From Patescibacteria group bacterium (GTDB taxonomy: Bacteria > Patescibacteriota > Minisyncoccia > Phycocordibacterales > CAIZLB01), in NCBI GenBank assembly GCA_040384445.1, contig JAZKJG010000002.1, positions 160,823 to 224,822 of the forward strand: a DNA stretch of 64,000 bases. The letters run 5' to 3'. Made by a program: the position numbers and the translations under genes. The notes under the pieces are model-generated. The model did not search any database. It was not told the origin of the DNA and saw only the letters and a program-made list of their open reading frames with translations. Below, piece by piece: positions 14,248 through 51,579 of the stretch. How positions within the stretch are numbered: position 1 is the first letter of the stretch; every line of letters begins with the position of its first letter.

Positions 14248-14271
14248 TCATTCACAAGCTATACTAAACCC

Positions 14272-14547
14272 ATGGAACAAACCACCCTCGAACATGCAAA
14301 TACATTCTTCTACATCACCTCAATCGCGGTATTTATCCTCATAATCATCCTTTTAGTGGTCCTATATGGAGTCTACCGAGCCTCAAAGTTCGTTAAGCAC
14401 ACTATGGACCGAGTTGAAACACTGATAGACAAGGCAGGGGATTCGGCCGAGGAAAATGGGGCAGCCAAGAAGGTTATCCCATATGTACTCCCAATCCTTG
14501 GCTTTTTCTTCAACAAGAAGAAAAGCTCGACAAGAAAGAAAATGTGA
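14272..14547 (+). CDS. small membrane protein (one TM, basic C-terminus)
   Basis: ORF 14233-14547. The likely start is MEQTTLEH at 14272, after the terminator hairpin. Confidence 0.3.
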   Translation: MEQTTLEHANTFFYITSIAVFILIIILLVVLYGVYRASKFVKHTMDRVETLIDKAGDSAEENGAAKKVIPYVLPILGFFFNKKKSSTRKKM

Positions 14548-17957: not shown

Positions 17958-18752
17958 TTATTTCGCAGCTAACATTTGATCTACGATCTTTTTCATTACA
18001 TCGTATGGTAATGCTCCAAGACCTTGCCCTTGTTCATTTACAAGAGGAATATCTTCACCGTTAAACTGTATTACAGTATAAGGAGTTCCTGCTGCACCTG
18101 CTTTAAGACCTGCTTCGTATGACTCCTTAACCTTTGTTGCATACTTTCCACTGTCAATACATGCTTTAAGTTTTGCTTTATCAACTCCTAGCTTTGATCC
18201 AATCTCAGGTAGAAGTGAAAGATCTAAACCATCATTAGATTTTGTTGTTGAATATAATTCATCAACAAAACTCCAAAATTTATCTTGACCACCAAGTTCA
18301 GCTACACATTCTGTTGCCTCAGCTTCTTTTGCTGCATTTTTATGAAGCGCTTGCTCTCCATATGAAAGAGGGAAATGTCGATACACCCACGCTACTTCGT
18401 CTGCCTTATACTCACTGTGAATTTTTTTCATAGTATCGTGATACACCTTACAGAAAGGACATTCGATATCTGAATATTCGATAATTACAATCTTTGCATC
18501 TTTGTTTCCTCTGATATGATCTGCATCAGTTACTTTGGCGATCTCAAACTCTGGGGCTGCAAGAGCACCTTTTACAAGATCTTGGCCATTACCATCTTTT
18601 TTATTTCCACTTACATAAAGTCCGAAGGCAATAAGTGCACCAGCCACAATAATTGCAATTGGTGTGATTAATTGTTTTTTATCAAAAGTTGATTTTGTTG
18701 AAGTTGCAGGAGTTGAATTTGCTACTTCTGTTTTATTGTATGTTGGTTCCAT
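17958..18752 (-). CDS. DsbA-family thiol:disulfide oxidoreductase, membrane-anchored
   Basis: N-terminal TM. CxxC active site (ECPFCKVYH) in a thioredoxin-fold context. Confidence 0.65.
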   Translation of the reverse strand: MEPTYNKTEVANSTPATSTKSTFDKKQLITPIAIIVAGALIAFGLYVSGNKKDGNGQDLVKGALAAPEFEIAKVTDADHIRGNKDAKIVIIEYSDIECPFCKVYHDTMKKIHSEYKADEVAWVYRHFPLSYGEQALHKNAAKEAEATECVAELGGQDKFWSFVDELYSTTKSNDGLDLSLLPEIGSKLGVDKAKLKACIDSGKYATKVKESYEAGLKAGAAGTPYTVIQFNGEDIPLVNEQGQGLGALPYDVMKKIVDQMLAAK

Positions 18753-20747: not shown

Positions 20748-21872
20748 GTGGCTAAAACACCATTTCAAAAAGATATACATATATTTCTAACAACACTGAT
20801 CGAGAAGGCGATCGCCATGAATGCTTCAGATATTCATATTGATCCTAAGGATAGTTTTGTTCAAATTCGTTTTAGAATTTCTGGAATACTTCATGAAAGT
20901 GGAAGATTGGAATTAGAATATTTGGATTTGTGTATTGGGAAGATAAAAGTTCTGGCTGAACTTCGCTCAGATGTTCATGATAAATCTCAAGATGGAAGAT
21001 TTTACTATATTTCAAATGTAACAGGTGAGCGTATTGATATACGTGTTTCTATAGCACCAACTTTTTATGGTGAAAATTGTGTGATGCGGCTGCTTCGACC
21101 TGAATTGTTGCGGTATCGAACATTTGCGGAACTTGGTATGACAATCGATCAAGTACACAGGTACACTACCTCACTTAAAAAAAGTTCAGGACTAATTATT
21201 GTGGCGGGGCCAACCGGATCTGGGAAAACAAGTACGCTATATACAACGCTGAGGTATCTCGCAAAAGGAGTTGATTCAAGTCATGCATTTTCAGACGAAA
21301 TAGATACTGAGCGAAATATTGTCACGATAGAAGATCCTGTTGAATCTGCAATTCCACGAATTAGACAAATTCAAATACATCCCGATAAAGGCTTTGGATT
21401 TAAGGAGGCGCTCAAAGGAATTTTAAGACAAGATCCAGATGTAATTATGATTGGTGAGATTCGCGATAAAGAAACTGCTCTCGCTGCGATTCAAACTGCA
21501 CTTACTGGTCATCTAGTTCTTGCTTCTATTCATGCTCCAAATGCAGCGTCAATTATTCCAAGACTTATCGACATGGGTATAGAACCATACATGCTTTCAT
21601 CTTCAATTTCTATGATATTGAGTCAGCGACTGATTCGTATGTTTGATTACTCACTTGGATTATATGGAGAACGAAAGGGGGTATTTGAAATAGTTCCGGT
21701 AGATACTGAAATGCGTGAGATGATTCATACAAAAAAGACTCCATATGAGATTGAACAATATTTATCGAAAACAGGTCACACCCTTCTTCGTGATGCATGT
21801 GCAGATATGTATATTCGACATGTAACAACTGAAGAAGAAATTAATCGCATAACACTTGATATATACTCATGA
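20748..21872 (+). CDS. pilB: type IV pilus/type II secretion assembly ATPase (GspE/PilB family, lacks N-terminal domain)
   Basis: Walker A (GPTGSGKTST), Asp box, Walker B and His box region. 374 aa. Confidence 0.75.
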   Translation: MAKTPFQKDIHIFLTTLIEKAIAMNASDIHIDPKDSFVQIRFRISGILHESGRLELEYLDLCIGKIKVLAELRSDVHDKSQDGRFYYISNVTGERIDIRVSIAPTFYGENCVMRLLRPELLRYRTFAELGMTIDQVHRYTTSLKKSSGLIIVAGPTGSGKTSTLYTTLRYLAKGVDSSHAFSDEIDTERNIVTIEDPVESAIPRIRQIQIHPDKGFGFKEALKGILRQDPDVIMIGEIRDKETALAAIQTALTGHLVLASIHAPNAASIIPRLIDMGIEPYMLSSSISMILSQRLIRMFDYSLGLYGERKGVFEIVPVDTEMREMIHTKKTPYEIEQYLSKTGHTLLRDACADMYIRHVTTEEEINRITLDIYS

Positions 21873-22915
21873 AATTAAAAAACAAAGAAGCCAGATCATT
21901 ATGGTACAAGAAAATATTTTTCTATTTGAAATCAGGACAGTCACTTCCTGAGTCGGTACGAACTGCAGCGTTAGATGCTGACAGCTTGTATATCTATGAA
22001 GAATTGATTGATGGTTCGAGGTTTTCAGATGTATGTGAGTTGCCAGAATTAAAAAATACATTCTCCCAAACAGAAGTGTCTTTGCTCCGAGTTGCAGAAC
22101 AAACAGGATCAATGCAATTCGTATGTGGAATTCTGTCTCAAATGTTGAAAGAACAATATGCGCAAGTGCAAAAACTTATTGCTGCACTTATATATCCTGT
22201 ACTGGTGCTTATCATGGCGTGTGGATTGCTGCTCATGATTCTTGTAGGAATTGTTCCAAAAATTGGTCCATTATTTTCTTCAATGAGTACCGTTCCATTT
22301 GCTACACGAATTCTTATTGCAGCAAGTAATCATGTTATATCTTTCTGGTATATCGATATTTGTGTTGGAATAGTTTTGTTGTGTGTGCTGATATATATGA
22401 AAAGAAAAACAACTTATTTTTCATATATTAGTCGGTGGATACAATATATTGCAATCAGAGCACCATATGTACGAGAAGTGTATTTATATTGGTATATCGA
22501 ACGATGGGTGCAAGTTGTTCATATCTCGTTACAGAGTCATGTGTCCTTACTTCAGTCACTTCAGTTTGCACATGAATCTGTTGAAAATCCATATATCCAA
22601 AAAGAGTTTTCAAAAGTAACAGAAGGGGTTCGGGTAGGTCAAACATGTGCCGATTCGCTTGGGCTCGTTGCTCCATTTCTAAAGCAAAAATTAAAAGACT
22701 GGATATCAGTTATTGCATCAGGAGAAAAAACTGGAACACTTCAAGAAGTTTTTGGTGTGAGCAGGGAACATATTGCAGAAAATCTTAAAGATGCATTTGA
22801 TAGGGCACAAAAAATAATTGAACCTATGCTTATTGTATTGGTTGGAATTATGGTTTTGTGTATTTGCTTGGCAATCATTTTGCCTATGTATCAATTAACT
22901 CAATCAGTACAATAA
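21869..22915 (+). CDS. pilC: type IV pilus platform protein (GspF/PilC family)
   Basis: 348 aa polytopic membrane protein. The start overlaps the pilB stop (ATGA). Architecture typical of T2SS-F. Confidence 0.7.
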   Translation: MKLKNKEARSLWYKKIFFYLKSGQSLPESVRTAALDADSLYIYEELIDGSRFSDVCELPELKNTFSQTEVSLLRVAEQTGSMQFVCGILSQMLKEQYAQVQKLIAALIYPVLVLIMACGLLLMILVGIVPKIGPLFSSMSTVPFATRILIAASNHVISFWYIDICVGIVLLCVLIYMKRKTTYFSYISRWIQYIAIRAPYVREVYLYWYIERWVQVVHISLQSHVSLLQSLQFAHESVENPYIQKEFSKVTEGVRVGQTCADSLGLVAPFLKQKLKDWISVIASGEKTGTLQEVFGVSREHIAENLKDAFDRAQKIIEPMLIVLVGIMVLCICLAIILPMYQLTQSVQ

Positions 22916-22916
22916 T

Positions 22917-24077
22917 ATGCATACACAAAAAGGATTTAGTTTAATAGAAGTAATGCTTGCACTCGCGATCTCCGTGATAGTTTTTGTTGCAGTCTTTCAT
23001 TTTGCTGCAAGTATACATACATATGCAAAAAAACATACTGCAACACCTGAGAAATATGTCTCATATCAATACGGTGAACCGTATTGTGGCATGCATAAAA
23101 CGTTGCAAGATATTCATTTCGATACATCAAATCAAATACACTTCCAAGCCTATCTATCTACTTCAACTAGAATTTCAAGTATTCATCAGTTGAACGGAAA
23201 CAGATTTCTTCTGACAACTGATTCTGCATCTACTTCAGAAAGTGATATTTTTCTGTTTGATGTTGATACTCAAAATACGACAGTCACACTCATATCTTCA
23301 CTTGACGTAGGTCCAGGTATTCAAGATGCAAAACTACTAGATCAATATTTATATGTTGCAAATACGAGTGTGAATAGTCACCTTAAAACATTGTATGTTA
23401 CAGAAAATTTAATTTCAGAATTATTTAATGTAAAATTACCATCATTATCATCGAGTGCATCATTACCAAAAAAGTTGGCAATATATGGAAACACATTAAT
23501 CCTTGGATCTGAGAAAAGTAACTCTGGTCCAGAATTGTTTGTGTTTCCTATAGAAGGGGATGGAGTGGTGAGAACTCCTATATATAGTATGGAGATTGAC
23601 GGACAGGCAAATCAGCTACTTTCTAGCTATGGAAATATACTGGTTGCAAATGCTGCAGATCCAGAATTACGAGTGTATAACTCACTATTTAATATCGAGT
23701 TCACATACGATGCGCCTCTAACTCTTGGAAATGGTAAAAGTGTCTTATATAAAGATCCATATATAATCCTAGGGCGTACAGTTGGATCAGGGGAGTTAAG
23801 TCTGTTACTTCAAAAGGGTACCACAACAGAAGTGCTAAAAACGAAACGAACTTATGGAACTGTTGATCATATTCAAATGCTGGATTCAGAAACCATACTC
23901 GCAATGACAGCTAATGAAGATGCTGAGCTACAATTTTGGAATATTCCTAGTTTAGATCACGAAAAAGATATTAATATTCCAGGTAGAGTATCAGCGTACG
24001 AATGTACATCAGAAAATTTGCTATTTATTTCCACAACAATTAATACGGAACCGGTCCTCTTATGGCTAGAAATATAA
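22917..24077 (+). CDS. large prepilin-type protein (class III signal peptide + 350-aa beta-rich domain)
   Basis: MHTQKGFSLIEVMLALAISVIVFVAVF gives a G|F cleavage site and Glu5. The long C-terminal domain may be PilY1/tip-adhesin-like. Confidence 0.6.
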   Translation: MHTQKGFSLIEVMLALAISVIVFVAVFHFAASIHTYAKKHTATPEKYVSYQYGEPYCGMHKTLQDIHFDTSNQIHFQAYLSTSTRISSIHQLNGNRFLLTTDSASTSESDIFLFDVDTQNTTVTLISSLDVGPGIQDAKLLDQYLYVANTSVNSHLKTLYVTENLISELFNVKLPSLSSSASLPKKLAIYGNTLILGSEKSNSGPELFVFPIEGDGVVRTPIYSMEIDGQANQLLSSYGNILVANAADPELRVYNSLFNIEFTYDAPLTLGNGKSVLYKDPYIILGRTVGSGELSLLLQKGTTTEVLKTKRTYGTVDHIQMLDSETILAMTANEDAELQFWNIPSLDHEKDINIPGRVSAYECTSENLLFISTTINTEPVLLWLEI

Positions 24078-24547
24078 CTTATAAAAAAGGATTTACTCTT
24101 ATAGAACTTGTGCTGTACATGGGTGTATTTACCATTCTGGTGGTTGGAATTCTATATACATCAATGTATATACAGAAAGTATTACAAGATTCTGCTGTTC
24201 GATATGAAATTGACGAGATTATATACAGGCAGTTAGCATTACTTCAAAATCACATAACTCTTGCCACTCATATTGAAGTAAGCACAAGTAGTATTCGTAT
24301 GTATTCTCAAAACAGCATTGTCACACAAGAATTAAGAAGTGGTATTTTGTTTATGATATATGAATATGGCAACGGGCAAAAGAAAGAGTTTGCAATATAC
24401 CCAACTATGAAATTTTCGGAGTTTTCGTTTAGAGATAATGAGACAGGGGAGACTTTTGAGACCAAAAATCAACTGAGAGTACAGGTGGATAGAATAGGTG
24501 TGAAAGGAAAATTAATGTCCTTAGAAGAGTATTTCTACACCTATTAA
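24062..24547 (+). CDS. prepilin-type N-terminal cleavage/methylation domain protein (pilin/pseudopilin)
   Basis: MARNITYKKGFTLIELVLYMGVFTILVVGIL. 161 aa. Confidence 0.65.
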   Translation: MARNITYKKGFTLIELVLYMGVFTILVVGILYTSMYIQKVLQDSAVRYEIDEIIYRQLALLQNHITLATHIEVSTSSIRMYSQNSIVTQELRSGILFMIYEYGNGQKKEFAIYPTMKFSEFSFRDNETGETFETKNQLRVQVDRIGVKGKLMSLEEYFYTY

Positions 24548-28565: not shown

Positions 28566-30569
28566 ATGTATATATCTTACAACTGGCTTAAGTCATATAT
28601 GAAAAATGCAGATACAGCAATGCCGACACCCGAGACTGTGTCTGATCTTTTTACAATGAGAGCTTTTGAAGTTGAAAGTATGGAAGAACAAGATGGAGAT
28701 GTTGTATATGATATTAAACTCACCGCAGATCGATCTCCGTATGCAAGAGGGATTCGATATATTGCACTTGAATTATCGCTCTTAGTACCTGAGCTTATTT
28801 TTGATCCAAAGTTTACTCCATTTACAAAAACAAACATAGATACAACGACAGTTAAAACAGAAGTACACAGTGCACTTGTTGATAAACATGCTACAGCTCT
28901 TTGTCCAATGTACTCACTTACAAAAATTGAGAATGTTCACAATGGCGTATCACCAAGTTCTGTAATCGAAAAATTAAAAGCGCTTGGACAGCAGAGTAGG
29001 GGAACGATAGTGGATCTTACAAATCTAGTAATGTATGACACAGGACAACCGTTACATGCATTTGATGCAGATAAAGTAGAGGGAGATGTACTGGTGGCAG
29101 TTCTTGATGTGGATACAGAAGTAAGTATTCTCGGAGGAAAAAAAGTATCTCTTAAAAAGGGAATGCTTGTGATACGAGATGATAAAGATATTTTAGCTAT
29201 TGCAGGGGTGAAAGGGTGTGTAAAAGCAGAAGTGGCAGCTGATACAAAAAATATATTTCTTGAGTCTGCAACATTTGAAAGGGTAGGGGTTCGAAAAACT
29301 TCTCGAGCGCTTGATATTATAAATGATTCATCTAAATGTTTTGAGCAGGGCGTGTCAGGGGAAAGATTTTTACTCGGAGTGGAAACATATATTGAGCATA
29401 TTAAAAATGTATTTCCAGATGCAAAAGTTCAGACTACGCAAGTTTCAACAGATGTTGATGCTGCTATTTCTTCTGTAAAATTGAACACTATTCTGGTGAG
29501 TGTTGAAAAAATGGCTAAGCTTGTAAATCCAGAAGATAAAGCTTTGGAGCAAGAGTTTAAAAACTTCTTAGAACAAACATTACCAAAAACTGGAGCGGTT
29601 GTAGAGAAAAAAAGTATGGATGAGTATGTTATTACAGCACCACTATATAGAACAGATCTCCAAACTGAAGCAGATGTTGTGGATGAATTTATACGAAATG
29701 TTGGGTATGAGATTATTACGTATAAAAAAACAGAAGAAGGTGGAGAAACAGAGCAAGGGAGAAAATATGTAGTCCTAAAAGCCATCCGAAAGTTTTTAAC
29801 AGAAAAAGGCTTTACAGAAGTATTGCTTCACACACTTGTAGATAACAACAAGAACCCAGATGCTGTACTTCTTGAAAATGCGTTAACATCAGAGAGAAAT
29901 GCACTCCGAGCTTTTCTTGCTCCAGAGATGGAACATGCAATTGTAAAAAATTTTCCATATTTAGATATTGTTGAAAAAACTTCAGTAAATCTTTTTGAGA
30001 TTGGATATGTGTATGAGGTTGTTAAAAACTCAATCAAACAAAAATTACATCTCGCACTAGGGATAGGGATGCCTAAGCAGCTAAAGAAAAAAGGCAATAC
30101 TGAATCTCTCACAGAAATCACTCATGAATTATTTCTAGGACTAAACTCTGTAAAAAATAGAGATACAGAAACGGTATATATTACTGAAGTTGATATTACA
30201 GACTTTGTTGAAACTTCAGATTTGAAAGTAAATGAAACAAAAAAAGAGTATCTTTCACCGAACGCGCGAATCAAATCATTTCCATATAAAAAAGCATCTG
30301 TATATCCAAGTATGAGCAGAGATATAGCTTTCTTTGTTGAAGGAGGGGATAAGGCTGATGTTGATCAAAGTATTCGGACATTTGCTAAACAAGATGGTCT
30401 TATTGAAACTATTACGTTGTTCGATGAATTTACAAAAGAAGATAAAACATCATATGGATATCGGTTCGTATTCCAGTCGTATGAGAAGACGTTAACGGAG
30501 GAAGAGGTCTCAAAAAGCATGCAACAAATAGCAGAATCTGTGACAGAAAAAGGCTGGATAGTTCGGTAG
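28566..30569 (+). CDS. pheT: phenylalanyl-tRNA synthetase beta subunit (shortened)
   Basis: N-terminus SYNWLKSY, and B3/4 and B5 regions. 667 aa, shorter than typical PheT. Confidence 0.8.
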   Translation: MYISYNWLKSYMKNADTAMPTPETVSDLFTMRAFEVESMEEQDGDVVYDIKLTADRSPYARGIRYIALELSLLVPELIFDPKFTPFTKTNIDTTTVKTEVHSALVDKHATALCPMYSLTKIENVHNGVSPSSVIEKLKALGQQSRGTIVDLTNLVMYDTGQPLHAFDADKVEGDVLVAVLDVDTEVSILGGKKVSLKKGMLVIRDDKDILAIAGVKGCVKAEVAADTKNIFLESATFERVGVRKTSRALDIINDSSKCFEQGVSGERFLLGVETYIEHIKNVFPDAKVQTTQVSTDVDAAISSVKLNTILVSVEKMAKLVNPEDKALEQEFKNFLEQTLPKTGAVVEKKSMDEYVITAPLYRTDLQTEADVVDEFIRNVGYEIITYKKTEEGGETEQGRKYVVLKAIRKFLTEKGFTEVLLHTLVDNNKNPDAVLLENALTSERNALRAFLAPEMEHAIVKNFPYLDIVEKTSVNLFEIGYVYEVVKNSIKQKLHLALGIGMPKQLKKKGNTESLTEITHELFLGLNSVKNRDTETVYITEVDITDFVETSDLKVNETKKEYLSPNARIKSFPYKKASVYPSMSRDIAFFVEGGDKADVDQSIRTFAKQDGLIETITLFDEFTKEDKTSYGYRFVFQSYEKTLTEEEVSKSMQQIAESVTEKGWIVR

Positions 30570-30649: not shown

Positions 30650-32758
30650 ATGGCAGAAAAAAAACCAGCTAAATCAACCTATGACGCAAGTGCTATTCAA
30701 GTATTAGAGGGGTTAGAGCCAGTACGAAAACGACCAGGAATGTACATTGGTACAACAGGACCAGACGGTCTACATCATCTTATAAATGAGATTTTTGATA
30801 ACTCACGAGATGAGGCCATGGGTGGATTTGCTGATCGAGTGGAAGTGGCTCTTCTTCCTGGAGGATATGTTCGAGTGGTGGATAACGGAAGAGGTATTCC
30901 TACAGGTATTCATCCTAAAACAAAAGTGTCTGCGCTTGAGACAACGATGACAGTTCTGCATGCTGGAGGAAAGTTTGGAGGAGAAGGGTATAAAGTGTCT
31001 GGAGGTTTGCATGGAGTAGGGGCATCTGTTGTAAACGCACTCTCAGTACACACCATGGTTACTGTACATCAAGATGGAGGAAAGTTTTTCCAAGAATATG
31101 AGATCGGTAAACCAAAAGCGCTCGTAAAAAAAGTTGGTACGTCAAAACTGCATGGAACGATTACAATGTGGAAAGCGGATGACACTATCTTCAAAGATGG
31201 TATCAACTATGACTGGACAAAGATTATGTCGCATCTACGACAGCAGGCATACCTTGTAAAAGGACTAAAGATTCATGTGATAGACCTACGAGGACTTGAG
31301 ATGACTGATAAGGAGGTTTTAAAAATGACAACAGATGCAGTGTATTTGTATGATGAAAATTTAGTTGCACCGTCAATGAGTTTTTATTTTGAAGGAGGAC
31401 TTCGATCTCTTGTTGCATTTTACAATCAGACTCAGAAAGCAGTACATAAGAATATTTTTTATGTTGAAAAAGATTATGTATCAAGTGACAAGGGGGCAGA
31501 AGGTGTTTCTGTGGCTGTTGAGGTTGCTCTGCAGTATGTTGATGACATCAGTAGTCGACTTGTTCCATTCGCGAACAATATCTATAACCCAGAAGGAGGA
31601 ACACATATCACAGGTTTTAAAACTGCTCTTACCCGAACTCTTAACACATACGCAAAGAAAAATAATATCGTTAAGGATGATGAGTCGTTTACAGGAGACG
31701 ATGTTCTTGAAGGTTTGTGTGGTGTTGTTTCTGTAAAACTCCAGGAGATTCAGTTTGAAGGACAGACAAAAGCAAAGCTAGGATCAACAGAAGCTCAGTC
31801 AGCAGTGAGTTCAGTGTTCGGTGAGGCGTTCTCTTCATTCCTAGAAGAAAATCCTGATGATGCAAAAGCTATTATAAATAAAGCGATACTTGCTGTGCGA
31901 GCTCGAAAGGCTGCTAAGGCTGCCAAGGATTCAATCATGCGAAAGGGTGCACTCGAAGGTATGACACTTCCTGGAAAGCTTGCAGATTGTCAGAGTAGAA
32001 AAGCAGAGGAGTCAGAACTCTTTATTGTGGAGGGAGACTCAGCGGGAGGTACTGCTGTTATGGGACGAGACCGAAAGACTCAAGCTGTTCTACCACTTCG
32101 AGGAAAGATTTTGAACATCGAGCGAGCACGACTGGATAAAATCCTTGCTTCAGAACAAGTACGAAATCTCGTAGTGGCACTAGGAACTGCTATTGGAGAT
32201 ATTTTTGATATTACAAAACTTCGATATCATAAAGTGATTATTGCAACTGATGCCGACGTTGACGGGGCCCATATTCGAACACTTATCTTAACTCTTTTGT
32301 ATCGATACTTCAGACCGCTTATTGAAGGTGGATTTATTTATATTGCACAACCGCCGCTCTATAAGATTACACACAACAAAAAGATTGTATACGTGTATTC
32401 TGATGATGAAAAAGCTATCCATATGAAAGCACTTGGGTTTGGTGAAGAGGAAGAAGAGGTTATAAACGAAGATGGAGAAGGTGAGGAGGTGGCACCTGTA
32501 GAAGAAACAGAAGAAGAGGATACAAAAGCTGCATCTAAAAAGCGACCAAGTATTCAGCGATATAAAGGTCTTGGAGAAATGAACGCAGAAGAACTTGGAG
32601 AAACTACTATGGATGTTACAAAGCGAGTTCTCAAGCAAGTGAATATTCTAGATGCTGTAGAAGCAGATAGGGTGATCGATGTTTTGATGGGAACTGATGT
32701 AGCTTCTCGAAAGAGTTTCATTCAGACAAATGCTCGCACTGCTCGGTTGGATGTGTAA
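30650..32758 (+). CDS. gyrB: DNA gyrase subunit B
   Basis: GHKL ATPase motifs (INEIFDNSRDEAMGG; GLHGVG), TOPRIM region (IVEGDSAGG) and C-terminal QRYKGLGEMN. A ~40-aa acidic insertion (EEEEEVINEDGEGEEVAPVEETEEED) precedes QRYKGLGEM. Confidence 0.9.
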   Translation: MAEKKPAKSTYDASAIQVLEGLEPVRKRPGMYIGTTGPDGLHHLINEIFDNSRDEAMGGFADRVEVALLPGGYVRVVDNGRGIPTGIHPKTKVSALETTMTVLHAGGKFGGEGYKVSGGLHGVGASVVNALSVHTMVTVHQDGGKFFQEYEIGKPKALVKKVGTSKLHGTITMWKADDTIFKDGINYDWTKIMSHLRQQAYLVKGLKIHVIDLRGLEMTDKEVLKMTTDAVYLYDENLVAPSMSFYFEGGLRSLVAFYNQTQKAVHKNIFYVEKDYVSSDKGAEGVSVAVEVALQYVDDISSRLVPFANNIYNPEGGTHITGFKTALTRTLNTYAKKNNIVKDDESFTGDDVLEGLCGVVSVKLQEIQFEGQTKAKLGSTEAQSAVSSVFGEAFSSFLEENPDDAKAIINKAILAVRARKAAKAAKDSIMRKGALEGMTLPGKLADCQSRKAEESELFIVEGDSAGGTAVMGRDRKTQAVLPLRGKILNIERARLDKILASEQVRNLVVALGTAIGDIFDITKLRYHKVIIATDADVDGAHIRTLILTLLYRYFRPLIEGGFIYIAQPPLYKITHNKKIVYVYSDDEKAIHMKALGFGEEEEEVINEDGEGEEVAPVEETEEEDTKAASKKRPSIQRYKGLGEMNAEELGETTMDVTKRVLKQVNILDAVEADRVIDVLMGTDVASRKSFIQTNARTARLDV

Positions 32759-32783
32759 GATTCTAAATGGTATACTTTTGTAT

Positions 32784-35504
32784 ATGAAAAAAAATATATT
32801 TGGTTTTCTTGCATTAGTGTTTTGCTTAAATCTAATCCCAAGTACAGTTATTGCAAGCCCTTTAATTTTTTTACCTGAACAGGTGCTGTTTGGAACAAGT
32901 GCAACATATAGTGCTGGTCAAGTTGAGAATATGACCTTTGTCGATAGTACGCAATCATCAGGCAAAAGACAAAATATCGAATACGGAATCGCACAGACTT
33001 TTACAGAAGGGTTGATTACGTCTTATGAGATTATTACAACAAAGGAAGCTGATATTTCCGGATTTGATGCTATTCCAGGACTAACTGTTGAAATTCCAAA
33101 TGTGATTGCTTCACAAGGAACAAGTAGCCCTAAGACATATGTTGCGTACATAAAGTTTTTAGAGAAAAATAACCAAGATAACGCAAGTTTCTATGCCTCT
33201 AAGGAGTTTTCAATTACTCCAAACAACACTCCGTATACAACTGTTAAAAATGTGAACCTTCTGATGTCAAACGGGGATCGTTTTTTTACAATCCACGGCC
33301 CTTCTATTTACATCCCAGAAGAAGCTGCTGCAGATCAAAATATCTCTTCATCAACATCGCTAGAGATTACATTTGAGTCAAATGTGGAAACTGTTTTAAA
33401 TCCTAAGATTATATTTACAAAATTAAGATCAAACAGTTTTAAAGAAGAATTTGTTCCTGCACCAATCACGATTAAAAAGGGTTTAAACTATATTGTAATA
33501 CCATTGCCTGTATTTGGATATGAACCAGGGGTGTACACAGGTCAAATGGTCATTGATTCGAAAACTCTGAAAAATACAGTTGATCTGCAGTATATTGTTT
33601 CAGGAGAATCAGTAACAGTTGGTTCTCCAGTATTGGTTACAAAAGACTCTAAAGAGCATATTAGTTTTGACATATTTAGTACACCAATTGATCTTGATCG
33701 AGAAGCTGACCTGGTTAATACTTCGGCTCTTCCTACTGCTTCTTCTACATCTACTCCTGTATTGTATTCAACAACAATTGAACTCCTTGATAAAGATAAA
33801 AATGTTTTAAGTACAATTACTCAAGACGTAGATTTCATGCAGGAAAGGTTTTCAGTAGAAATCCCGGTTGCTAAATTTAAAAAACTAGACATAGAATATA
33901 CTCACATCAAAGTTACTTCACCAAGGACAGGGAAGGTGGTATACGAAGGAACAAAAGATTTTACATACTCGTCACTACCTGAAATAAATCTATATGAAAT
34001 AGGATTCGTTGTACTGTATATATTGTTTTTGATTGCTGTTCTGTTTTTTGCTTTCAAAAGAGATCTAAAAAAAGCAATAGCATTTGGTGTTCTTATTGGT
34101 ATATTATTTATATCTAAATCAGCCTTCGGAGTAGTGACTCAGGGGTTGTACCCATTAGATAGTACGGTAGTTAATAAACAAGCTACTGCATCTCAGCTGT
34201 TGAATGTGACAAAAAATCCAGACGAGCACTATCCCAAATTCTATTTCCAAGATGATGTTGTAAATAAGACATATACATGTGGTATGCCTAAAACTATAAC
34301 TTTTACTGTTCGGTACATCATGTGTTCAAACGCTACTCCGATACTTAAGGTCGGGGCATCAATGAGTGACTTGAATGCAGCCGAAGCTGCTAAAAGTGAT
34401 ATTGGATTAGCCTCTGCGCAAGAAGGTGTCGGTTCGGTTGGGGTACACTCGTACTATAGAAGACTTTCTGAATTTCGTACCGCAACAGTACCTGCATCTC
34501 AGTCAGGAACACAGTATCTATACCTCTATGTGTATCATAAGGCTAGTGCGGCGACAAATGAAATCTACCGTGGATATAGTTACAATGCAGTACCTGTAAC
34601 AACAGGATCTTGTTCTGCTTGTACAAACGCACCAGAAACTTCAAATGTACCCAACTTTAAAGTACATGGAAGAAATTATTATTACTCTTCAATAGATCAA
34701 AAACTATACTATAGAGAAGCACCAGCAGGTGCAAACATGTCTACTCCTGACGCGTGCGGAATAGATTTATGTGCAGACACTTCAGATATTGAAACAGATT
34801 TCCCAGCTGGAAAAGTTTGGAGTCCACAACCCCCTACAAACTCAACTGACCCAAACAGATATGCTTGCGTTGGAATGAGCATTACATGTGCATGCCAAGG
34901 GAGAAATAGAGTATGTACAAATTCAACGATGGGTACAACATCAACTGATATAAACCATTCATCATGTCTACTTAGAGCATACTGCAGTGTTTCTTACTTT
35001 GGCACAAACTCGGGAACTGTAACATTTGATGCCTATAACAAATTAGGTTCACTTGCATTTGATCCAGATGAAAATCCTGTAATTCGAGAGTCTATTGCAA
35101 TAGGTAATGAATTAATTACGCGAAATGTAATTGACACATTTGATGGTAGAGACGCTGAAGCTTCATGTTTACTTGAGTACGGTGGGGGAATATTACATGG
35201 AAACACTGGTTCTTCAACTATTATAAAATTCTATGCGGACCCAAAAGTAGTGGACTCAGGAAGAATGTGTCACTTTGGGTGGCAAACCAACAACATGGAA
35301 TCATGTTCAATTAATAGTGTTAATTACGCTACAAACACATTTCCTGGAGACCCAGAATCATACTCAGTAGGAACATTGGGAGAAAGGAATCGTACAGTAA
35401 CACTCAGTTGTTACGGTGTTGTGGATCCTGATATTGGAGGACCTGCTCCATTGATAGCAACAACAACAACTTGTTTCGTAAATCCTAAGATTCAAGAGAA
35501 CTAG
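32784..35504 (+). CDS. large surface/membrane protein with signal peptide, central TM helix and Cys-rich C-terminal half
   Basis: ORF 32730-35504. The probable start is MKKNIFGFLALVFCL at 32784. There is a TM near aa 425-445 (FVVLYILFLIAVLFFAF). The C-terminal ~470 aa contain many Cys residues. No family motif. Confidence 0.45.
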   Translation: MKKNIFGFLALVFCLNLIPSTVIASPLIFLPEQVLFGTSATYSAGQVENMTFVDSTQSSGKRQNIEYGIAQTFTEGLITSYEIITTKEADISGFDAIPGLTVEIPNVIASQGTSSPKTYVAYIKFLEKNNQDNASFYASKEFSITPNNTPYTTVKNVNLLMSNGDRFFTIHGPSIYIPEEAAADQNISSSTSLEITFESNVETVLNPKIIFTKLRSNSFKEEFVPAPITIKKGLNYIVIPLPVFGYEPGVYTGQMVIDSKTLKNTVDLQYIVSGESVTVGSPVLVTKDSKEHISFDIFSTPIDLDREADLVNTSALPTASSTSTPVLYSTTIELLDKDKNVLSTITQDVDFMQERFSVEIPVAKFKKLDIEYTHIKVTSPRTGKVVYEGTKDFTYSSLPEINLYEIGFVVLYILFLIAVLFFAFKRDLKKAIAFGVLIGILFISKSAFGVVTQGLYPLDSTVVNKQATASQLLNVTKNPDEHYPKFYFQDDVVNKTYTCGMPKTITFTVRYIMCSNATPILKVGASMSDLNAAEAAKSDIGLASAQEGVGSVGVHSYYRRLSEFRTATVPASQSGTQYLYLYVYHKASAATNEIYRGYSYNAVPVTTGSCSACTNAPETSNVPNFKVHGRNYYYSSIDQKLYYREAPAGANMSTPDACGIDLCADTSDIETDFPAGKVWSPQPPTNSTDPNRYACVGMSITCACQGRNRVCTNSTMGTTSTDINHSSCLLRAYCSVSYFGTNSGTVTFDAYNKLGSLAFDPDENPVIRESIAIGNELITRNVIDTFDGRDAEASCLLEYGGGILHGNTGSSTIIKFYADPKVVDSGRMCHFGWQTNNMESCSINSVNYATNTFPGDPESYSVGTLGERNRTVTLSCYGVVDPDIGGPAPLIATTTTCFVNPKIQEN

Positions 35505-35650: not shown

Positions 35651-36679
35651 ATGAAAACTCTTCGATTCTTGGCAGTGGTCTTAACAGCCATTGCTTTGCT
35701 GTCTTTTTTCTCTAACACATCCGAGGCTTCAGGTCTTGTGGATGTAAACTACGCCACTCTTAATATTGTCACTGCGTCAGACTCTACAGAACAACAAACA
35801 GGATTAGGGAAAACGGTCTTTGTACCGATTGAAACCTTTCTTGTTGATACTGCCCGAGTGAAAATCAGTTTTGAATTGTACCGCTCGGACAGTGTCCAGA
35901 CATACAACATGGATCGCCTGAATATTCTGAACTTCAACCCTACTTGTAGGGTTGTGCAAAACAATGATCCTGATCAGTGGATTTCAAGTATCAGCGGGTT
36001 TGTAAATTTTGCAACTGCCGGTGCTATGTATACTGACCTCAGTACGTCACCTGAAGTAAATCAAGGGATGTTCATTTGCCCCTTGGATTCCAGTGGTCAT
36101 ATAGTTGCATCCTTAGTTGGAACTCGTATCAATGATCCTAACCCTCATCTGATGAATAGTGGTGCGTACAAAGTTCACTCGAATGCCAGTATGACTGTGC
36201 ATAAAGTGAAAGTTGTAAACATGCCGCTTATTTTCAGGGATGGGGTTGGGGCACAAATCATGCGCGATCTAAAAACTTCGTATCCTAATCGCCCCCTCAG
36301 TCTGTTGTTGGATGTCAACATTATAGTCAACCTTGCACTCAATCCATACGAAGGTTGTATGTACTCACCAAGCCTTAGGCGAACATCAAGCCTTTGTTGG
36401 CTTCACTTCGACGGGAGGCTTATACCAGAAGGAGACTTCCAGCTGGCGATCACATCGCCCAACTCCGTTATTGTCCCAGCCGGCTGCTTCAGTTGGCTGG
36501 ACCTCTACCACTCTCCATCGCCCGGAGAGATCGGTACCAAGGTGAACTTGCATTCCTGCAACATCATGTCCTACGGTCCGCAGACCATCAGTCCGCCGAC
36601 CATGGGAACCAACATGGTTTCAGGAATCCAAACACCTCATGCGAAGGGTTTCTACACCCTTCGCACTCGGATCGAATAA
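35651..36679 (+). CDS. secreted hypothetical protein with GC-rich 3' third
   Basis: Signal peptide (MKTLRFLAVVLTAIALLSFFSNTSEA). By eye the last ~320 nt (about 36360-36680) are ~55% GC, against ~36% genome-wide. A putative sigma-70 promoter (TTGACA...TATGAT) lies at 35531-35563. Confidence 0.5.
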   Translation: MKTLRFLAVVLTAIALLSFFSNTSEASGLVDVNYATLNIVTASDSTEQQTGLGKTVFVPIETFLVDTARVKISFELYRSDSVQTYNMDRLNILNFNPTCRVVQNNDPDQWISSISGFVNFATAGAMYTDLSTSPEVNQGMFICPLDSSGHIVASLVGTRINDPNPHLMNSGAYKVHSNASMTVHKVKVVNMPLIFRDGVGAQIMRDLKTSYPNRPLSLLLDVNIIVNLALNPYEGCMYSPSLRRTSSLCWLHFDGRLIPEGDFQLAITSPNSVIVPAGCFSWLDLYHSPSPGEIGTKVNLHSCNIMSYGPQTISPPTMGTNMVSGIQTPHAKGFYTLRTRIE

Positions 36680-36744: not shown

Positions 36745-38055
36745 TTAGTTAACTTGAACTGTTGCGTACTGAGTGTTATCACCTTCATTTGACTCACTTA
36801 CAGCATTTGATGTATCTGCCATAAATGTAATTCGGTTTGTTCCTCGTGTGAGACTATCGATCTCATAGAGGATAGTTGATTCACTTCCTGATGCTAAACC
36901 ATTATCAGATCCTGGGATAAAATCTCGAGTGTATCCATTACTATCAACAAGAGAAATTTTACTTGACCAAGAGTTACTAAAGTAACCACCGTTGTTTCGA
37001 ACTCGTGCTCGAACCGCAAGCTTTTCTCCGTAATTCACATAACTTTGTGAATAGAATGATCCATTAATAACTCGTCCAACTTCAAGAGATACGATAGAAA
37101 GGTTAGGGGAATATGAGTTGTTGTTATTATATCCAGTACTGTAATTGTTATTACAGTTGTAGTTGTAACTATAGTTTCCATTATAATCACAATTATTGTA
37201 GTTATAGTTGTAATTAGTATTGTTATAGTATGTGTTAGAAATGTTTTTAATTTCTACTGCTACTGTGTTGTCACTTTCGTTTGATTCAGCAACTTGATTT
37301 TCTGTATCAAGATAAATTCGAACGATTGGAGTTCCTTGTGAAAGATCAACGCCGCTAAATCGTGCTTCGACACTATATGAACTTCCTCCAGGAATACTGT
37401 TTAGGTTGTTGAGAATTTTTACTTTATCATCGTATTCTCGAGCAGGCATTTCAACTCGCATTGAGTATGATCCAGTTGGAGAATCTTGCTCGTTGAGTAC
37501 TAGGAATCGTACTGAAATTGTATCTTCAGTAGTAAATGTGTTTCTTGCAACAAACTGACCATTTAAAATAACACCCATTGTTGAGTAACTTACTCGTAAG
37601 TTTTTTCGTCCACTCAAAACCGGAGTGGGATTGTAATATGTATATGTTGGAGTTTTTACAACTGGCTTAGCAACAGTTTTTACTGGAGCTTTAGCAGGTG
37701 CATTTTCAAGAATCACAATGTCTCCTTGAGTTGTATATATGCCGTTTAGGCCATTATCTGTAACTGGAGCGGGTTGCGCCACAGGCTGAGTTGGGGTTGT
37801 CGTCGCAATAGTCTCTGTCTTGCCTAGGGAAACAGTGGCTGATGCCAGCTGGTTTATGCCTCGAGGGATAAGTTTAAAGAGGGTAATACTTAAAAAGACC
37901 AAAATAGCGATTGCTATAATGATAACTAGAAAGCGGATGATTGTTCGTAATATTTCCATAATGTTTGTATTATATACATAATATCTATATATGTCAAGGG
38001 TTAAGAGATGTTCTAAGTATGGCAATATAGAGTATATAAAACGATTATATGGCAC
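36745..38055 (-). CDS. membrane-anchored surface protein with CARDB-like domains and Asn/Tyr-rich low-complexity linker
   Basis: N-terminal TM (FLVIIIAIAILVFLSITLF). NYNYNYNNCDYNGNYSYNYNCNNNY stretch. Two CARDB-like segments (ESNESDNTVAVEIKN; ESNEGDNTQYATVQV). Confidence 0.5.
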   Translation of the reverse strand: MPYNRFIYSILPYLEHLLTLDIYRYYVYNTNIMEILRTIIRFLVIIIAIAILVFLSITLFKLIPRGINQLASATVSLGKTETIATTTPTQPVAQPAPVTDNGLNGIYTTQGDIVILENAPAKAPVKTVAKPVVKTPTYTYYNPTPVLSGRKNLRVSYSTMGVILNGQFVARNTFTTEDTISVRFLVLNEQDSPTGSYSMRVEMPAREYDDKVKILNNLNSIPGGSSYSVEARFSGVDLSQGTPIVRIYLDTENQVAESNESDNTVAVEIKNISNTYYNNTNYNYNYNNCDYNGNYSYNYNCNNNYSTGYNNNNSYSPNLSIVSLEVGRVINGSFYSQSYVNYGEKLAVRARVRNNGGYFSNSWSSKISLVDSNGYTRDFIPGSDNGLASGSESTILYEIDSLTRGTNRITFMADTSNAVSESNEGDNTQYATVQVN

Positions 38056-38753
38056 AAGAAATATTCACAAAAGAAGAAATTGCGATAGGTTGGAAGGTGC
38101 TAAAAATAGCGATTGGAATACTTGTGGTTACTGGATTACTTTCAAGCATATTAAGGCTCACGATTGTATATATGACAGAGGGTAAGACTGGGCTAACTAA
38201 CTTTATAGAAGATAAAACTGATGGAAATGGAGCATTGAGTACGCAAGCGAATCTTAAGCAATCGCTAGAAGAAGAAAAAAAAGAAACTATACCTGTTGCG
38301 CCTTTGCCAACAGAAGCACCACAGTATTTGGAAGTACCATCACTTGGTATTAAAACAAAAATCGAATCACCAGAAACTACGAGTGTTGCAGTACTTGATG
38401 CTGCACTTCAAAGATCTGCAGTGTACTACCAAGGTTCAGGAACTCCTGGAAATAGAAACATGTTAATCTTCGGACACAGTACTGGATTTTCAGTTGTTCG
38501 AAATCAAGCGTATAAAGTTTTTAATACAATAAAAACAGCGAAAGCTGGAGAAGTGATTTATGTCCGAACAGCAAGTGGAGTGCATACTTATAAAGTACGA
38601 GAGGTAAAGAGGGTGAGTAAATATAATACATGGATTGATTTTGATAGTACGAAGCCGATGTTAACTCTTGCGACATGTGATAGTTTTGGGAAAGCTTCTG
38701 ACAGATGGGTTTTACAGGCGGATTATGTAGGGTTTACTGCGAAGGGTATATAA
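38049..38753 (+). CDS. sortase family transpeptidase
   Basis: N-terminal TM. Catalytic His (LIFGHS), the TLxTC signature (LTLATCD) and a downstream Arg. Confidence 0.7.
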   Translation: MAQEIFTKEEIAIGWKVLKIAIGILVVTGLLSSILRLTIVYMTEGKTGLTNFIEDKTDGNGALSTQANLKQSLEEEKKETIPVAPLPTEAPQYLEVPSLGIKTKIESPETTSVAVLDAALQRSAVYYQGSGTPGNRNMLIFGHSTGFSVVRNQAYKVFNTIKTAKAGEVIYVRTASGVHTYKVREVKRVSKYNTWIDFDSTKPMLTLATCDSFGKASDRWVLQADYVGFTAKGI

Positions 38754-38788
38754 ATAAAAACACCCCCGACGCTGGTGCGTCGGGGGTG
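38752..38788 (-). terminator. GC-rich hairpin CACCCCCGACGC-tggt-GCGTCGGGGGTG with T-run on the minus strand
   Basis: 12-bp stem. Read on the minus strand it is followed by TTTTTATTTAT. It terminates the 38796-39278 gene. Confidence 0.65.
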
Positions 38789-38795
38789 GTGGTGT

Positions 38796-39278
38796 TCAGG
38801 TTCCGATCTCTCTGGTTTCCATGATCAGATCGTATAACTTGTCGAAGAAAATTCCAAATAAAAAATCTGCAGGTTCAATTCTCTCATTGATTGCTGGATG
38901 AATGAAAGATTGCTTTGCATCACCCTGAGAAGGTGCGATGTAGAATACAGTTATATTGTCTCCTAAACACTGATCGATATGTTGTACGAATGTAAACTCA
39001 TGAGCCGACCGATCGTCAATATGCCTAACCGTGAGTGTAATACTTTTTTTATTGGGTAATCCTTGAAGTCCTTCAGGATTGCTCTGTTTTGCAATAGCCT
39101 GAAATTCTCCCGCCAATTCTGAACTCATAAGAGCATTGATCAAGTCTTTGATCGGCAAAGAAATCGAAGCGGTAATTCTATATCCGTGAATAGTTTTCAT
39201 TTTCAATATCAGGTTGAGTTGACCACCTAAAACGTAAGGTGCTGCAATACAGGCTATCACAGCTCTTCTGTATGTCAA
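38796..39278 (-). CDS. hypothetical protein (160 aa), GC-elevated
   Basis: ORF with its own strong terminator. GC is visibly higher than the flanking genes. No motif recognised. Confidence 0.4.
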   Translation of the reverse strand: MTYRRAVIACIAAPYVLGGQLNLILKMKTIHGYRITASISLPIKDLINALMSSELAGEFQAIAKQSNPEGLQGLPNKKSITLTVRHIDDRSAHEFTFVQHIDQCLGDNITVFYIAPSQGDAKQSFIHPAINERIEPADFLFGIFFDKLYDLIMETREIGT

Positions 39279-39310
39279 CTCACATTGATTGTGATAATAT
39301 TAGTGATATG

Positions 39311-40726
39311 AATAATGAAATACCTCAAGCTCCTCGTATCGTCAATTTTACAGACGAGACATTGAATCAAACATCTACACCAATAGTCACTCATCAGAAA
39401 ACCTCGACATACTCGTCAGGTTTTCTTTTTGCGTTCACTGCATTTGCTGCTGCATTAGTTGCATATATCTTCTATGGACCATTAATATACTTATTGATAA
39501 CAGAAACCCGGCTGTATTTTTTGCAGAACATTGATTTGACTCCATATATTGGCCTGATAGCAATTGTGGTTTCAGTATTTGGAGTAATTGTGCTTATCAA
39601 AAATATCGGGAAAGGATATGGGTACGTAAGAAATTTATTACCTCTAACTTTTTTAATTCATACAGCATTAATTTTTGTTCCACTTATCCCTGCTCTAAAT
39701 GATCCTGCAAATTATCTGATGGCCGAAAAGTATATTCTTTATGGTGTTATAGGATCAGCAATAATGACTCTTTTGGCTTTAATCTTTTCAATTATTATTT
39801 TGTATAGAAACTCGAAGGTTTTAGGTATTGTTTTAATGCTCGGATTAATTGGAGTTACCGGTTGGGCAGTTCTTAATAATGCTCAATTTAAAACTGATTT
39901 AGAGGTTAAAGCAGGCATGGGTTCAGAATTAGATTCACATTCAAACTCAGGTCCTCAAAGAATTCAAACAATGAATGGAATTCTTACTTTTACTCTCGGT
40001 GATAATGTTGATTATGAGAATTGGGGACATGCAACTTCAGAGGCTGCGTTGATATTTACTGAAAACAATAAAGGAAGTGGAACTTTATTTGGTGGTTGTG
40101 GTGCAGGATCTTCATTTATAGAAGTGATTGAAGATTTGGACAAGACTATTTATCATACAAATGATCGGTTAAATGTAAGAAAGGAAACATATGGAAATAA
40201 TATATATGTTGTTTATGATTGGGCATTTGAACCATCAATCTCTTACTATGAGTTGTATTATAAAAATACTAGAGTACATATTGTGTATCGTCCGAATGAA
40301 CCATGTGCAGTTGGAAAAAACTACAGACCAGATCTAGAACTCTTATTAAAAACATTTAATTATGAAGGATACGAAAAAGGAGAACCTGAGGTGGCTAAAC
40401 CTGCACCAGTAATTGTAAAGACTGCAGTTGTTGCAAAGGAAAAAACACCTCCAAAATCAAATATTACAAAACAAGGAGAAGGTAAGTTTGAAAGTACTAT
40501 ATATTCTGATTTATCTTTTACACCTCAAATAGATAAAACATATGTGTCTGATGCACAGGTAAATTATTGGTATGATTTAATGTGGGTAAAAGGAGTATCA
40601 GTAAGTAATTATGAGTGTGAAGATAAATCAGCATCTATGATAAAAAGTACCGATGCGAATACTAGAGCTACAGGAATTGCGCAGGTAAATGCATGCCTGT
40701 ATGTGATGCTGTACATGATGCCGTAG
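39311..40726 (+). CDS. membrane protein (N-terminal multi-TM domain + ~270-aa Cys-containing C-terminal domain)
   Basis: ORF 39239-40726. The start MNNEIPQ at 39311 avoids overlap with the minus-strand gene. About 6-7 TM helices then a soluble domain. Confidence 0.45.
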   Translation, partial: NNEIPQAPRIVNFTDETLNQTSTPIVTHQKTSTYSSGFLFAFTAFAAALVAYIFYGPLIYLLITETRLYFLQNIDLTPYIGLIAIVVSVFGVIVLIKNIGKGYGYVRNLLPLTFLIHTALIFVPLIPALNDPANYLMAEKYILYGVIGSAIMTLLALIFSIIILYRNSKVLGIVLMLGLIGVTGWAVLNNAQFKTDLEVKAGMGSELDSHSNSGPQRIQTMNGILTFTLGDNVDYENWGHATSEAALIFTENNKGSGTLFGGCGAGSSFIEVIEDLDKTIYHTNDRLNVRKETYGNNIYVVYDWAFEPSISYYELYYKNTRVHIVYRPNEPCAVGKNYRPDLELLLKTFNYEGYEKGEPEVAKPAPVIVKTAVVAKEKTPPKSNITKQGEGKFESTIYSDLSFTPQIDKTYVSDAQVNYWYDLMWVKGVSVSNYECEDKSASMIKSTDANTRATGIAQVNACLYVMLYMMP

Positions 40727-51084: not shown

Positions 51085-51579
51085 CTAGACCCTCTTTTGC
51101 AACAGGGTTGAGATACCTAAGAAAAATACATACACAAAAATAACCCAACTGAGTGCGTACAATATGCTTGCAATCAACTCTGCTTTCATAAGTAAATTAA
51201 AATTACCTAAAATAAAATTCCAATCATGAATCACATTATCACCACCCAAAAGTGGTAACTCCATTTTTAATGCATCACTTGCATATCTTGAAACATTTGC
51301 AATATTTTCTGCTACCCACATCATGAGTATGGCAAATGAAAATATATCCTTTCGTCTTAAAAAATATACCGCACATATAAGTGGAATAAAAATTTGGAAT
51401 ATACTTCCACCTAATGCAGTAGCGATTTCTCCAAAAATAAAAGTTGGAACTAATGTGTGACCTGCCTCATGAAAAATCAGATCAACAGTATTTATAAAAT
51501 GCCACTCAGATGAATAGATACAAAAGAAGAAATATAGTGAAGCAAGTATAAATCCGAATATTTTCATATTACTCTCCAC
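51085..51579 (-). CDS. small polytopic membrane protein with HExxH motif (possible intramembrane zinc metallopeptidase-like)
   Basis: HEAGHTL motif within or adjacent to a TM segment. 164 aa. Confidence 0.4.
   Translation of the reverse strand: MESNMKIFGFILASLYFFFCIYSSEWHFINTVDLIFHEAGHTLVPTFIFGEIATALGGSIFQIFIPLICAVYFLRRKDIFSFAILMMWVAENIANVSRYASDALKMELPLLGGDNVIHDWNFILGNFNLLMKAELIASILYALSWVIFVYVFFLGISTLLQKRV

Follow-up and report, generated by a model that had tools for sequence, protein, structure and literature searches.

Housekeeping sortases of classes A, D and E, such as SrtA of S. pyogenes and S. agalactiae, SrtD of C. perfringens (4d70) and SrtE of Thermobifida fusca, are close described counterparts of a 234-residue sortase encoded in a 64,000-nucleotide stretch of contig JAZKJG010000002.1 from a Patescibacteria group bacterium (the window; all positions given below are positions in it, with the strand in brackets). 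Like these enzymes, the window sortase has an N-terminal anchor, a His-Cys-Arg triad and a TLxTC motif, its modelled catalytic domain is an eight-stranded beta-barrel (Foldseek probability 1.0, target-normalised TM-score 0.6-0.8), and the substrates of its relatives carry P-x-T-G, a transmembrane (TM) segment and a basic tail. It differs from the solved housekeeping sortases in sequence (~20% identity), in an F-x3-E motif of its own, in a relatives' sorting motif that starts mostly with Val or Ile and not with Leu, in the long cytoplasmic tails of the relatives' substrates, which end FKxxNMxKKG, and in a conserved, divergently transcribed and N-terminally anchored partner gene. This neighbour, a CARDB protein, is a conserved sortase partner across the clade and has not been described previously. 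We consider it fairly probable, on comparison with the relatives, that the pair consists of a catalytically competent housekeeping sortase, with [VIL]PxTG substrates encoded elsewhere in the genome, and a partner coupled to it.

Two further described systems resemble parts of this locus. In Gram-positive pilus-type (class C) clusters, as here, the surface proteins handled by the sortase have Ig-like folds and are encoded close to it, and substrate and partner share domain types. Unlike the enzymes of such clusters, the window sortase scored 32 bits against a class C model that requires 160, and no lid or pilin motif was identified; each cassette in the relatives holds one substrate gene, and the partner is anchored at its N-terminus and has no sorting signal. 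With CARDB surface proteins (PF07705) the partner shares two beta-sandwich domains bearing the signature E-x-N-E-x-(D/N)-N, but, unlike in the usual members of that family, these are fused to a clade-specific TM/juxtamembrane module. A literature search covering sortases of Patescibacteria and Parcubacteria, CARDB and LPXTG returned general statements only, and nothing on substrates or partners. A sortase family, fam000526, is found in more than half of the genomes of the Candidate Phyla Radiation (CPR) and is enriched there relative to other bacteria (PMC6744442). The window sortase, a candidate member, very probably belongs to this family, for which the passages of that paper that deal with it describe no cognate substrates, sorting motif or conserved partner.

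The 234-residue protein is a sortase outside the curated classes

The sortase gene (38049..38753, +) encodes a cytoplasmic N-terminus, a TM anchor at residues 17-42 (38097..38174, +) recognised by hydropathy and modelled as a helix spanning residues 8-44 by AlphaFold2 (AF2), a low-confidence linker of ~45 residues, and a catalytic beta-barrel (residues ~90-231). The protein passed both the Pfam model PF04203 (E=1.5e-19, 70.4 bits against a cut-off of 26.6) and the NCBIfam model TIGR01076, sortase_fam (41.2 bits against 39.35). Homologues with 36-81% identity were aligned (alignment A1, 27 sequences), and His143 within FGHSTG (codon at 38475..38477, +), Cys210 within TLATC (38676..38678, +) and Arg219 within DRWV (38703..38705, +) were unchanged in every one of them. 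The distinctive TCDSFG...DR context was likewise invariant in this alignment, as were Phe6 and Glu10 (F-x3-E) in the cytoplasmic N-terminus. An earlier note on this DNA, made from the sequence alone, had recognised a 234-residue sortase with a His, the Cys of TLATC and an N-terminal TM segment, and had proposed that loss of the catalytic triad in an alignment would speak against it; the protein is as described, and no such loss was seen. In the lineage of the window the catalytic domain is 54-82% identical, and 30 columns are invariant clade-wide. We considered whether F-x3-E might be a type IV pilin-like signal, and rejected this, since the Phe is not preceded by a Gly and is separated from the TM segment by charged residues.

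The AF2 model, built on alignment A1, had a mean predicted local distance difference test (pLDDT) score of 79, with most of the catalytic domain at 84-96. Foldseek comparison of the model with the PDB gave 136 matches at E<=1e-3, and the best 50 of these 136 were all sortases. Structures of SrtA, SrtC, SrtD and SrtE matched at probability 1.0, with E values from 1e-10 to 1e-8 and ~20% identity, and the best PDB match by sequence was SrtD of C. perfringens, 4d70 (E=2e-8). The earlier note had suggested that a structure prediction would assign the class of the enzyme. No class follows from the prediction, since the fold is about equally near to class A, C, D and E structures, and a structural class assignment was rejected for this reason. 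Nor did the sequence reach any of the NCBIfam class-specific models tested (A-F and GN), the scores in bits against their cut-offs being 43/160 for class E, 41/140 for SrtD, 36/165 for class D, 33/166 for class F, 32/160 for class C, 18/158 for GN and 14/154 for class B. The sortases of two related loci (L036 and L053) failed the class models in the same way. Since the general Pfam and TIGR01076 models are passed, the triad is invariant, the predicted fold is that of a sortase and no class model is reached, the protein is a genuine and apparently active sortase that falls outside the curated classes. An identical sequence, annotated 'sortase', is present in the metagenome assembly GCA_040384025.1 and in a Logan contig of run SRR26324625.

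A membrane-anchored CARDB protein is the conserved partner of the sortase

We compared the window with 80 loci from species-representative genomes and several from metagenomes (~85 loci, referred to by numbers beginning with L), in which open reading frames (ORFs) were called and clustered. The metagenome-assembled genomes from which the relatives came are labelled Paceibacteria, Parcubacteria, Nomurabacteria and Taylorbacteria, and that of the window is likewise of Paceibacteria/Parcubacteria type. A divergent pair, with the N-terminally anchored CARDB protein on one side and the sortase on the other, was found in 69 of the 79 evaluable loci; the partner homologue adjoined the sortase divergently in 60 and lay within 3.5 kb of it in 9 more. 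Three of the 10 loci without a recorded pair are truncated at a contig end. Among the other exceptions, L061 does contain the partner gene, which was found with a hidden Markov model (HMM) of its N-terminal module, in L066 it points the other way, and L041 encodes a small N-anchored protein in its place. In a reciprocal test, the partner homologues on contigs outside the sortase matches listed had a sortase beside them in all cases (4/4).

The pair is kept when one flank changes (valS, rpsP, ndk or thrS) and also when the other does (gyrB or unrelated genes). In one sublineage (L014-L023, L089, L090) three genes lie between partner and sortase, encoding an extracytoplasmic function (ECF) sigma factor, a 253-residue membrane protein that is possibly an anti-sigma factor, and a 236-residue secreted helical-repeat protein. 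The window has its own homologue of the ECF sigma factor, with a 286-residue neighbour (5359-5958 and 5987-6847), 32 kb from the sortase. In gene order, the association of the sortase with the partner is tighter than that with the substrate gene described below.

In the window the partner gene (36745..37959, -), identified by Pfam CARDB matches, an AF2 model and synteny, encodes 404 residues without a C-terminal sorting signal. The mechanically called ORF extends over 36745-38055 (-), but the N-termini of homologues, public gene calls and the position of the promoter agree on the ATG at 37959 as the true start. This promoter is a sigma-70 sequence, TTGACA-17-TATAAT, with 12/12 consensus matches (37969..37997, -), and it lies in the 89-bp intergenic region that separates the divergent sortase and partner genes. 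From the N-terminus, the protein is composed of a TM anchor, a juxtamembrane motif, a Thr/Pro-rich linker, a first CARDB domain, an Asn/Tyr/Cys-rich linker and a second CARDB domain. Pfam CARDB (PF07705) matched in two stretches (E=4.8e-12, 46.4 bits, gathering score 22.7). The first beta-sandwich (residues ~121-241; 37237..37599, -) ends with ESNESDNT and was modelled with strands over residues 121-236 at pLDDT 85-91; the second (residues ~287-403; 36751..37101, -), for which the best Pfam stretch is 301-396, ends with ESNEGDNT and has strands over residues 287-403 at pLDDT ~90.

Between the two domains lies a low-complexity, Cys-containing linker rich in Asn and Tyr (residues 239-286; 37102..37245, -), modelled as disordered over residues 244-282 and including the tract NYNYNYNNCDYNGNYSYNYNCNNNY (residues 249-273; 37141..37215, -). 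The description of this neighbour as a divergent, N-terminally anchored, CARDB-like and Asn/Tyr-rich surface protein, given when the sequence was first read, thus holds: Pfam finds CARDB twice, the TM segment is at residues 7-28, and the Asn/Tyr tract is NYNYNYNNCDYNGNYSYNYNCNNNY. At the DNA level the linker contains weak, imperfect repeats only. Relatives keep its composition and vary its length; in the window and in L003, L004 and L006 the linkers have 2-4 Cys residues each and widely differing lengths. A gene for a DsbA-like thioredoxin, at 17958-18752 (-), fits nearby Cys-rich surface proteins. Also recorded was the partner-derived peptide FKLIPRGINQLASA.

The ectodomains of the partners vary among relatives, some having a single CARDB domain, some two, and others CARDB together with PKD. 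An alignment of 64 unique partners showed that only the N-terminal module is conserved clade-wide. In the window this module, delineated by the alignment and the module HMM (37822..37941, -), consists of the TM helix (residues 7-28) and the juxtamembrane segment KLIPRGINQLASATVSLG (residues 29-46). Its consensus comprises basic residues, a TM segment of ~22 residues and then [RK]-[LIYF]-[VI]-P-x-[AVG]-[ILV]-[NS]-x-[LI]-[AGS]-x-A-[STA]-[VL]-S. In the AF2 model the N-terminus of the partner forms a helix over residues 2-38 and a beta-strand over residues 41-50 (pLDDT ~80), followed by ~60 disordered residues. When we ran the module HMM over ~1.2 Mb of related DNA, one ORF was matched per locus, and this was always the sortase partner. 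A phmmer search with the first 90 residues of the partner retrieved 7 cluster representatives among 1.84 billion, and a 58-residue profile of the module found nothing at E<=1e-3 among 5.8 billion proteins, a null result attributable to a query too short for a database of that size.

Relatives encode a substrate with a mild variant of LPXTG beside the sortase

In more distant relatives, whose sortase catalytic domains are 38-57% identical to that of the window (57% in L025, for example), a canonical substrate gene lies just downstream of the sortase, mostly at 22-230 bp and on the same strand. The encoded protein has a signal peptide, PKD-type repeats, a motif of the form (S/N)(Q/E)[VIL]P[YADSE]TG, a TM segment and a tail rich in Lys and Arg. 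We found such a gene in at least 24 of 57 evaluable loci, or in 28-29 if five cases of weaker hydrophobicity, judged by eye, are counted. The motifs were VPYTG (6), VPATG (5), VPDTG (5), IPATG (3), IPYTG (2), VPSTG (1), LPETG (1) and LPYTG (1); the relatives' sorting motif is a mild variant of LPXTG and not an exotic one. Some substrate genes are 2-3 kb away from the sortase, others lie upstream of the partner, and two are present in L079, so that adjacency is common but not obligatory.

The LPXTG_anchor model, TIGR01167, matched three of six of the relatives' substrates tested, at the correct position, with 10.4-14.9 bits. As this is below the cut-off of 15.9, routine annotation would miss these proteins. 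Many of the substrate tails (L025-L039, L046, L048, L069) are unusually long and end with FK(L/M)xNMxKKG(L/I), and it is conceivable, from these tails together with Phe6 and Glu10 of the sortase, that there is a recognition step on the cytoplasmic side. In six other loci (L065, L071, L074, L075, L082, L086) an 800-950-residue protein without a TM tail is encoded downstream of the sortase; its C-terminus is conserved as SSY(S/V)xGVTGAKLAL(T/I)RAL(S/A/M)(V/I/T)(L/I/V)(G/N)(A/G).

No sorting signal is detected in the window

Hydropathy and motif scans of all ORFs in the 64 kb found no C-terminal sorting signal, and a relaxed six-frame scan of the window found no [LIVMFA][PA]x[TSA][GASN] followed by an uncharged hydrophobic stretch and at least two Lys or Arg residues. 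In all, three independent scans gave this result, and the same scan detected signals in 28 related loci, which served as the positive control. The absence of an LPXTG-like signal from the window, which had been reported at first reading, was therefore reproduced under relaxed criteria. The partner and the neighbouring proteins of 924, 342 and 495 residues (described below) have no C-terminal hydrophobic segment, and so lack the tripartite organisation of a substrate. A phmmer search of the window ORFs with the relatives' substrates found no homologue, and neither a sorting signal nor an adjacent substrate gene was seen in the window together with its closer relatives (L003-L024 and L088-L090, with sortases 44-73% identical; ~450 kb).

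Four candidates were examined and rejected. The sequence SSLPEIN within the 924-residue protein is followed by a TM segment and KRDLKK, but the motif is lost in orthologues (SLEQN, RDTEPN and others), which keep the TM hairpin. A 164-residue protein (51085-51579, -) has LPLLGG, a C-terminal TM segment and QKRV; its Pro varies (L004 has LNLLGG), and 25 residues separate the motif from the TM segment. LPKTG in PheT (28566-30569) is a chance match in a cytoplasmic enzyme, and a 104-residue protein (14233-14547) with a hydrophobic, basic C-terminus contains no motif. Small genomes usually hold few sortase substrates, and absence from a single 64-kb window is for that reason statistically unremarkable; what gives it meaning is solely the position of the substrate gene in relatives, immediately next to the sortase.

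Proposed function of the pair and alternative explanations

Patescibacteria are generally regarded as living attached to other cells, with surface proteins as the likely points of contact. Taken together, the comparisons suggest that the window enzyme would be an N-terminally anchored sortase of a Paceibacteria-specific subfamily outside classes A-F. By analogy with its relatives, it would recognise secreted proteins that end with [V/I/L]-P-x-T-G, a TM segment and a basic cytoplasmic tail; Cys210 would cleave after the Thr and then transfer the protein to a peptidoglycan precursor. Judging from its genes, the organism is one with a peptidoglycan wall, since two secreted proteins of the window carry PG_binding_1 domains and the locus of one relative encodes a penicillin-binding protein transpeptidase and MreB. 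Through its TM/juxtamembrane module the partner is probably coupled to the sortase at the membrane surface, in a physical or a functional way. The CARDB protein itself, which lacks a C-terminal sorting signal, is not a canonical substrate.

The ancestral arrangement was probably a three-gene cassette within a conserved stretch of the core genome, in the order pheST-gyrB-[N-anchored CARDB partner, leftward][sortase, rightward][VPxTG PKD-type substrate, rightward]-thrS-dnaE. In the lineage of the window the adjacent substrate gene would then have been lost or moved, and lineage-specific secreted proteins together with valS now flank the pair. Since the adjacent gene is gone in this lineage and present in relatives, the substrates of the window sortase are most likely encoded elsewhere in the genome. 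The earlier note had left two possibilities, a substrate elsewhere or a non-canonical motif; the relatives point to the former, and the motif that they suggest is a mild [VIL]PxTG variant and not an exotic one. The missing substrate would in this way reduce to an ordinary cause, the relocation or loss of one gene. For a large uncultivated group, [VIL]PxTG followed by a TM segment and a basic tail constitutes a recognisable sorting signal that standard annotation misses, the conserved three-gene cassette names candidate sorted proteins, and the undescribed membrane-anchored partner offers an N-terminal module that travels with the sortase.

Several observations weigh against this interpretation. 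The proposed specificity of the window sortase, and the existence of its targets, derive from the relatives, and the search for substrates in this genome covered 64 kb, a small fraction of it, in which none was seen. Among L003-L024 (44-73% identity), of which 14 have at least 2.5 kb downstream of the sortase, no locus showed a substrate at a distance of up to 10 kb. It may therefore be that canonical substrates have been lost in the lineage of the window. With regard to the partner, four loci (L040, L044, L046 and L050) have the sortase and truly lack the partner next door; one of these, L046, has a sortase with an LPETG substrate and no adjoining partner, and the partner is thus not strictly required in cis. 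Finally, the link between sortase and partner is drawn from gene order in a region that is syntenic anyway.

This last point leads to the first alternative, that there is no functional link, the pair being adjacent only through an inherited pheST-gyrB...thrS-dnaE synteny block and the CARDB protein being an independent adhesin or envelope protein. Housekeeping genes do flank the pair: in 55 related loci gyrB is just upstream, at a distance of a few kb, and 36 have pheST there; thrS and dnaE follow the sortase in many, and valS, rpsP or ndk does so in the lineage of the window. The absence of a sorting signal from the partner would also be expected of an independent protein. The pair, however, survives rearrangement of either flank, and where genes have been inserted between its members, the distance stays within 2.5 kb. 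In 60 loci the two genes still diverge from a short intergenic region that they share, and the N-terminal module occurs in no other ORF across the ~1.2 Mb of related DNA. We regard adjacency without a link as unlikely.

A second alternative is that the partner is itself the main client of the sortase, its juxtamembrane motif serving as a pseudo-substrate or regulator in the active site, as a site of ectodomain shedding, or as a dock or acceptor for VPxT-linked proteins, which would then be anchored to a membrane protein and not to the wall. The partner is kept in lineages without an adjacent canonical substrate, and its TM/juxtamembrane module is universal while the ectodomain varies (CARDB once or twice, or PKD). 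Its motif [RK]-phi-[VI]-P-x-[AGV]-phi-[NS], which is I-P-x-G-I-N in the lineage of the window, resembles [VI]-P-x-T-G-I minus the Thr and is placed at the outer face of the membrane, where sorting motifs are presented; sortase and partner, moreover, share a divergent promoter region in which the partner promoter is a perfect consensus. Against this, the scissile Thr-Gly pair, which to our knowledge every characterised sortase (classes A-F) requires, is missing from the motif. The motif is also C-terminal to the TM segment, so that an acyl-enzyme would capture only a short membrane peptide, and no conserved Lys acceptor was identified in the partner. L046, with a sortase and an LPETG substrate and no partner next door, argues in the same direction, and in the AF2 model residues 41-50 form an ordinary beta-strand of the partner itself. 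It is quite improbable that the partner is the main client. On the model, the juxtamembrane segment might equally well serve as a dock, pseudo-substrate or acceptor or be a structural part of a surface protein that is independent of the sortase.

A more elaborate form of this idea, which we also hold to be doubtful, is a two-component display unit. The [VI]-P-x-[AG]-phi sequence of the partner would dock in or beside the active site of the sortase as a pseudo-substrate, regulator or acceptor, and VPxTG proteins would be joined to, or organised around, a membrane-anchored stalk instead of, or besides, peptidoglycan, with the partner as the principal client in the lineage of the window. That the sortase was orphaned or repurposed as a protease or transpeptidase in this lineage after substrate loss would fit the lack of a substrate in the window and in ~450 kb of closely related loci, but is very unlikely given that the triad and catalytic domain are strongly conserved (54-82% identity in the lineage, 30 invariant columns), as is typical of a functional enzyme, and that the loci examined make up a small part of each genome.

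Neighbouring genes and other envelope proteins of the window

Two secreted proteins are encoded in tandem on the far side of the partner gene. The first (32730..35504, +; 924 residues) has a signal peptide, an ectodomain of ~400 residues, a TM-KRDLKK-TM hairpin (residues ~423-470) and a second, Cys-rich ectodomain; it has no Pfam match. Its occurrence is restricted to 11 loci, in which the sortase has an identity of at least 54%, and its orthologues keep the TM hairpin and a C-terminal ending T(T/R)TC(F/L/Y)V(N/R/K)P. The second (35651..36679, +; 342 residues) has no C-terminal anchor and was found in L003, L006 and L011-L013, a subset of the loci with the 924-residue protein. Downstream of the sortase stop, a GC-rich, terminator-like hairpin with a 12-bp stem (38761..38788) precedes a convergent ORF of 160 residues (38796-39278, -), which is followed by a multi-TM ORF of 495 residues (39239-40726, +). 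Neither of these ORFs has a homologue among 87 related loci, except in the same organism, and the two resemble a strain-specific insert that separates the sortase gene from valS. Whether the neighbours are conserved with the sortase had been raised at the outset: the proteins of 924 and 342 residues are, in the close lineage only, and the third, listed then as 470 residues and corresponding to the 495-residue ORF, is strain-specific.

Other genes in the window also relate to the cell envelope. Secreted proteins with PG_binding_1 are encoded at 3330-5075 (+) and 55950-57815 (+), the latter also with fibronectin-III and purple-acid-phosphatase N-terminal-like domains, and the organism would therefore attach surface proteins to peptidoglycan non-covalently as well. 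A PdaC/DUF3298 protein (10549-11331, +), a C39-like peptidase (11354-12052, +) and a CAP-domain protein (15770-16675, +) are also present. A type IV pilus cluster lies at ~20748-24547 (+) and includes a 386-residue protein with an N-terminal methylation (pilin-like) motif (22917-24077).

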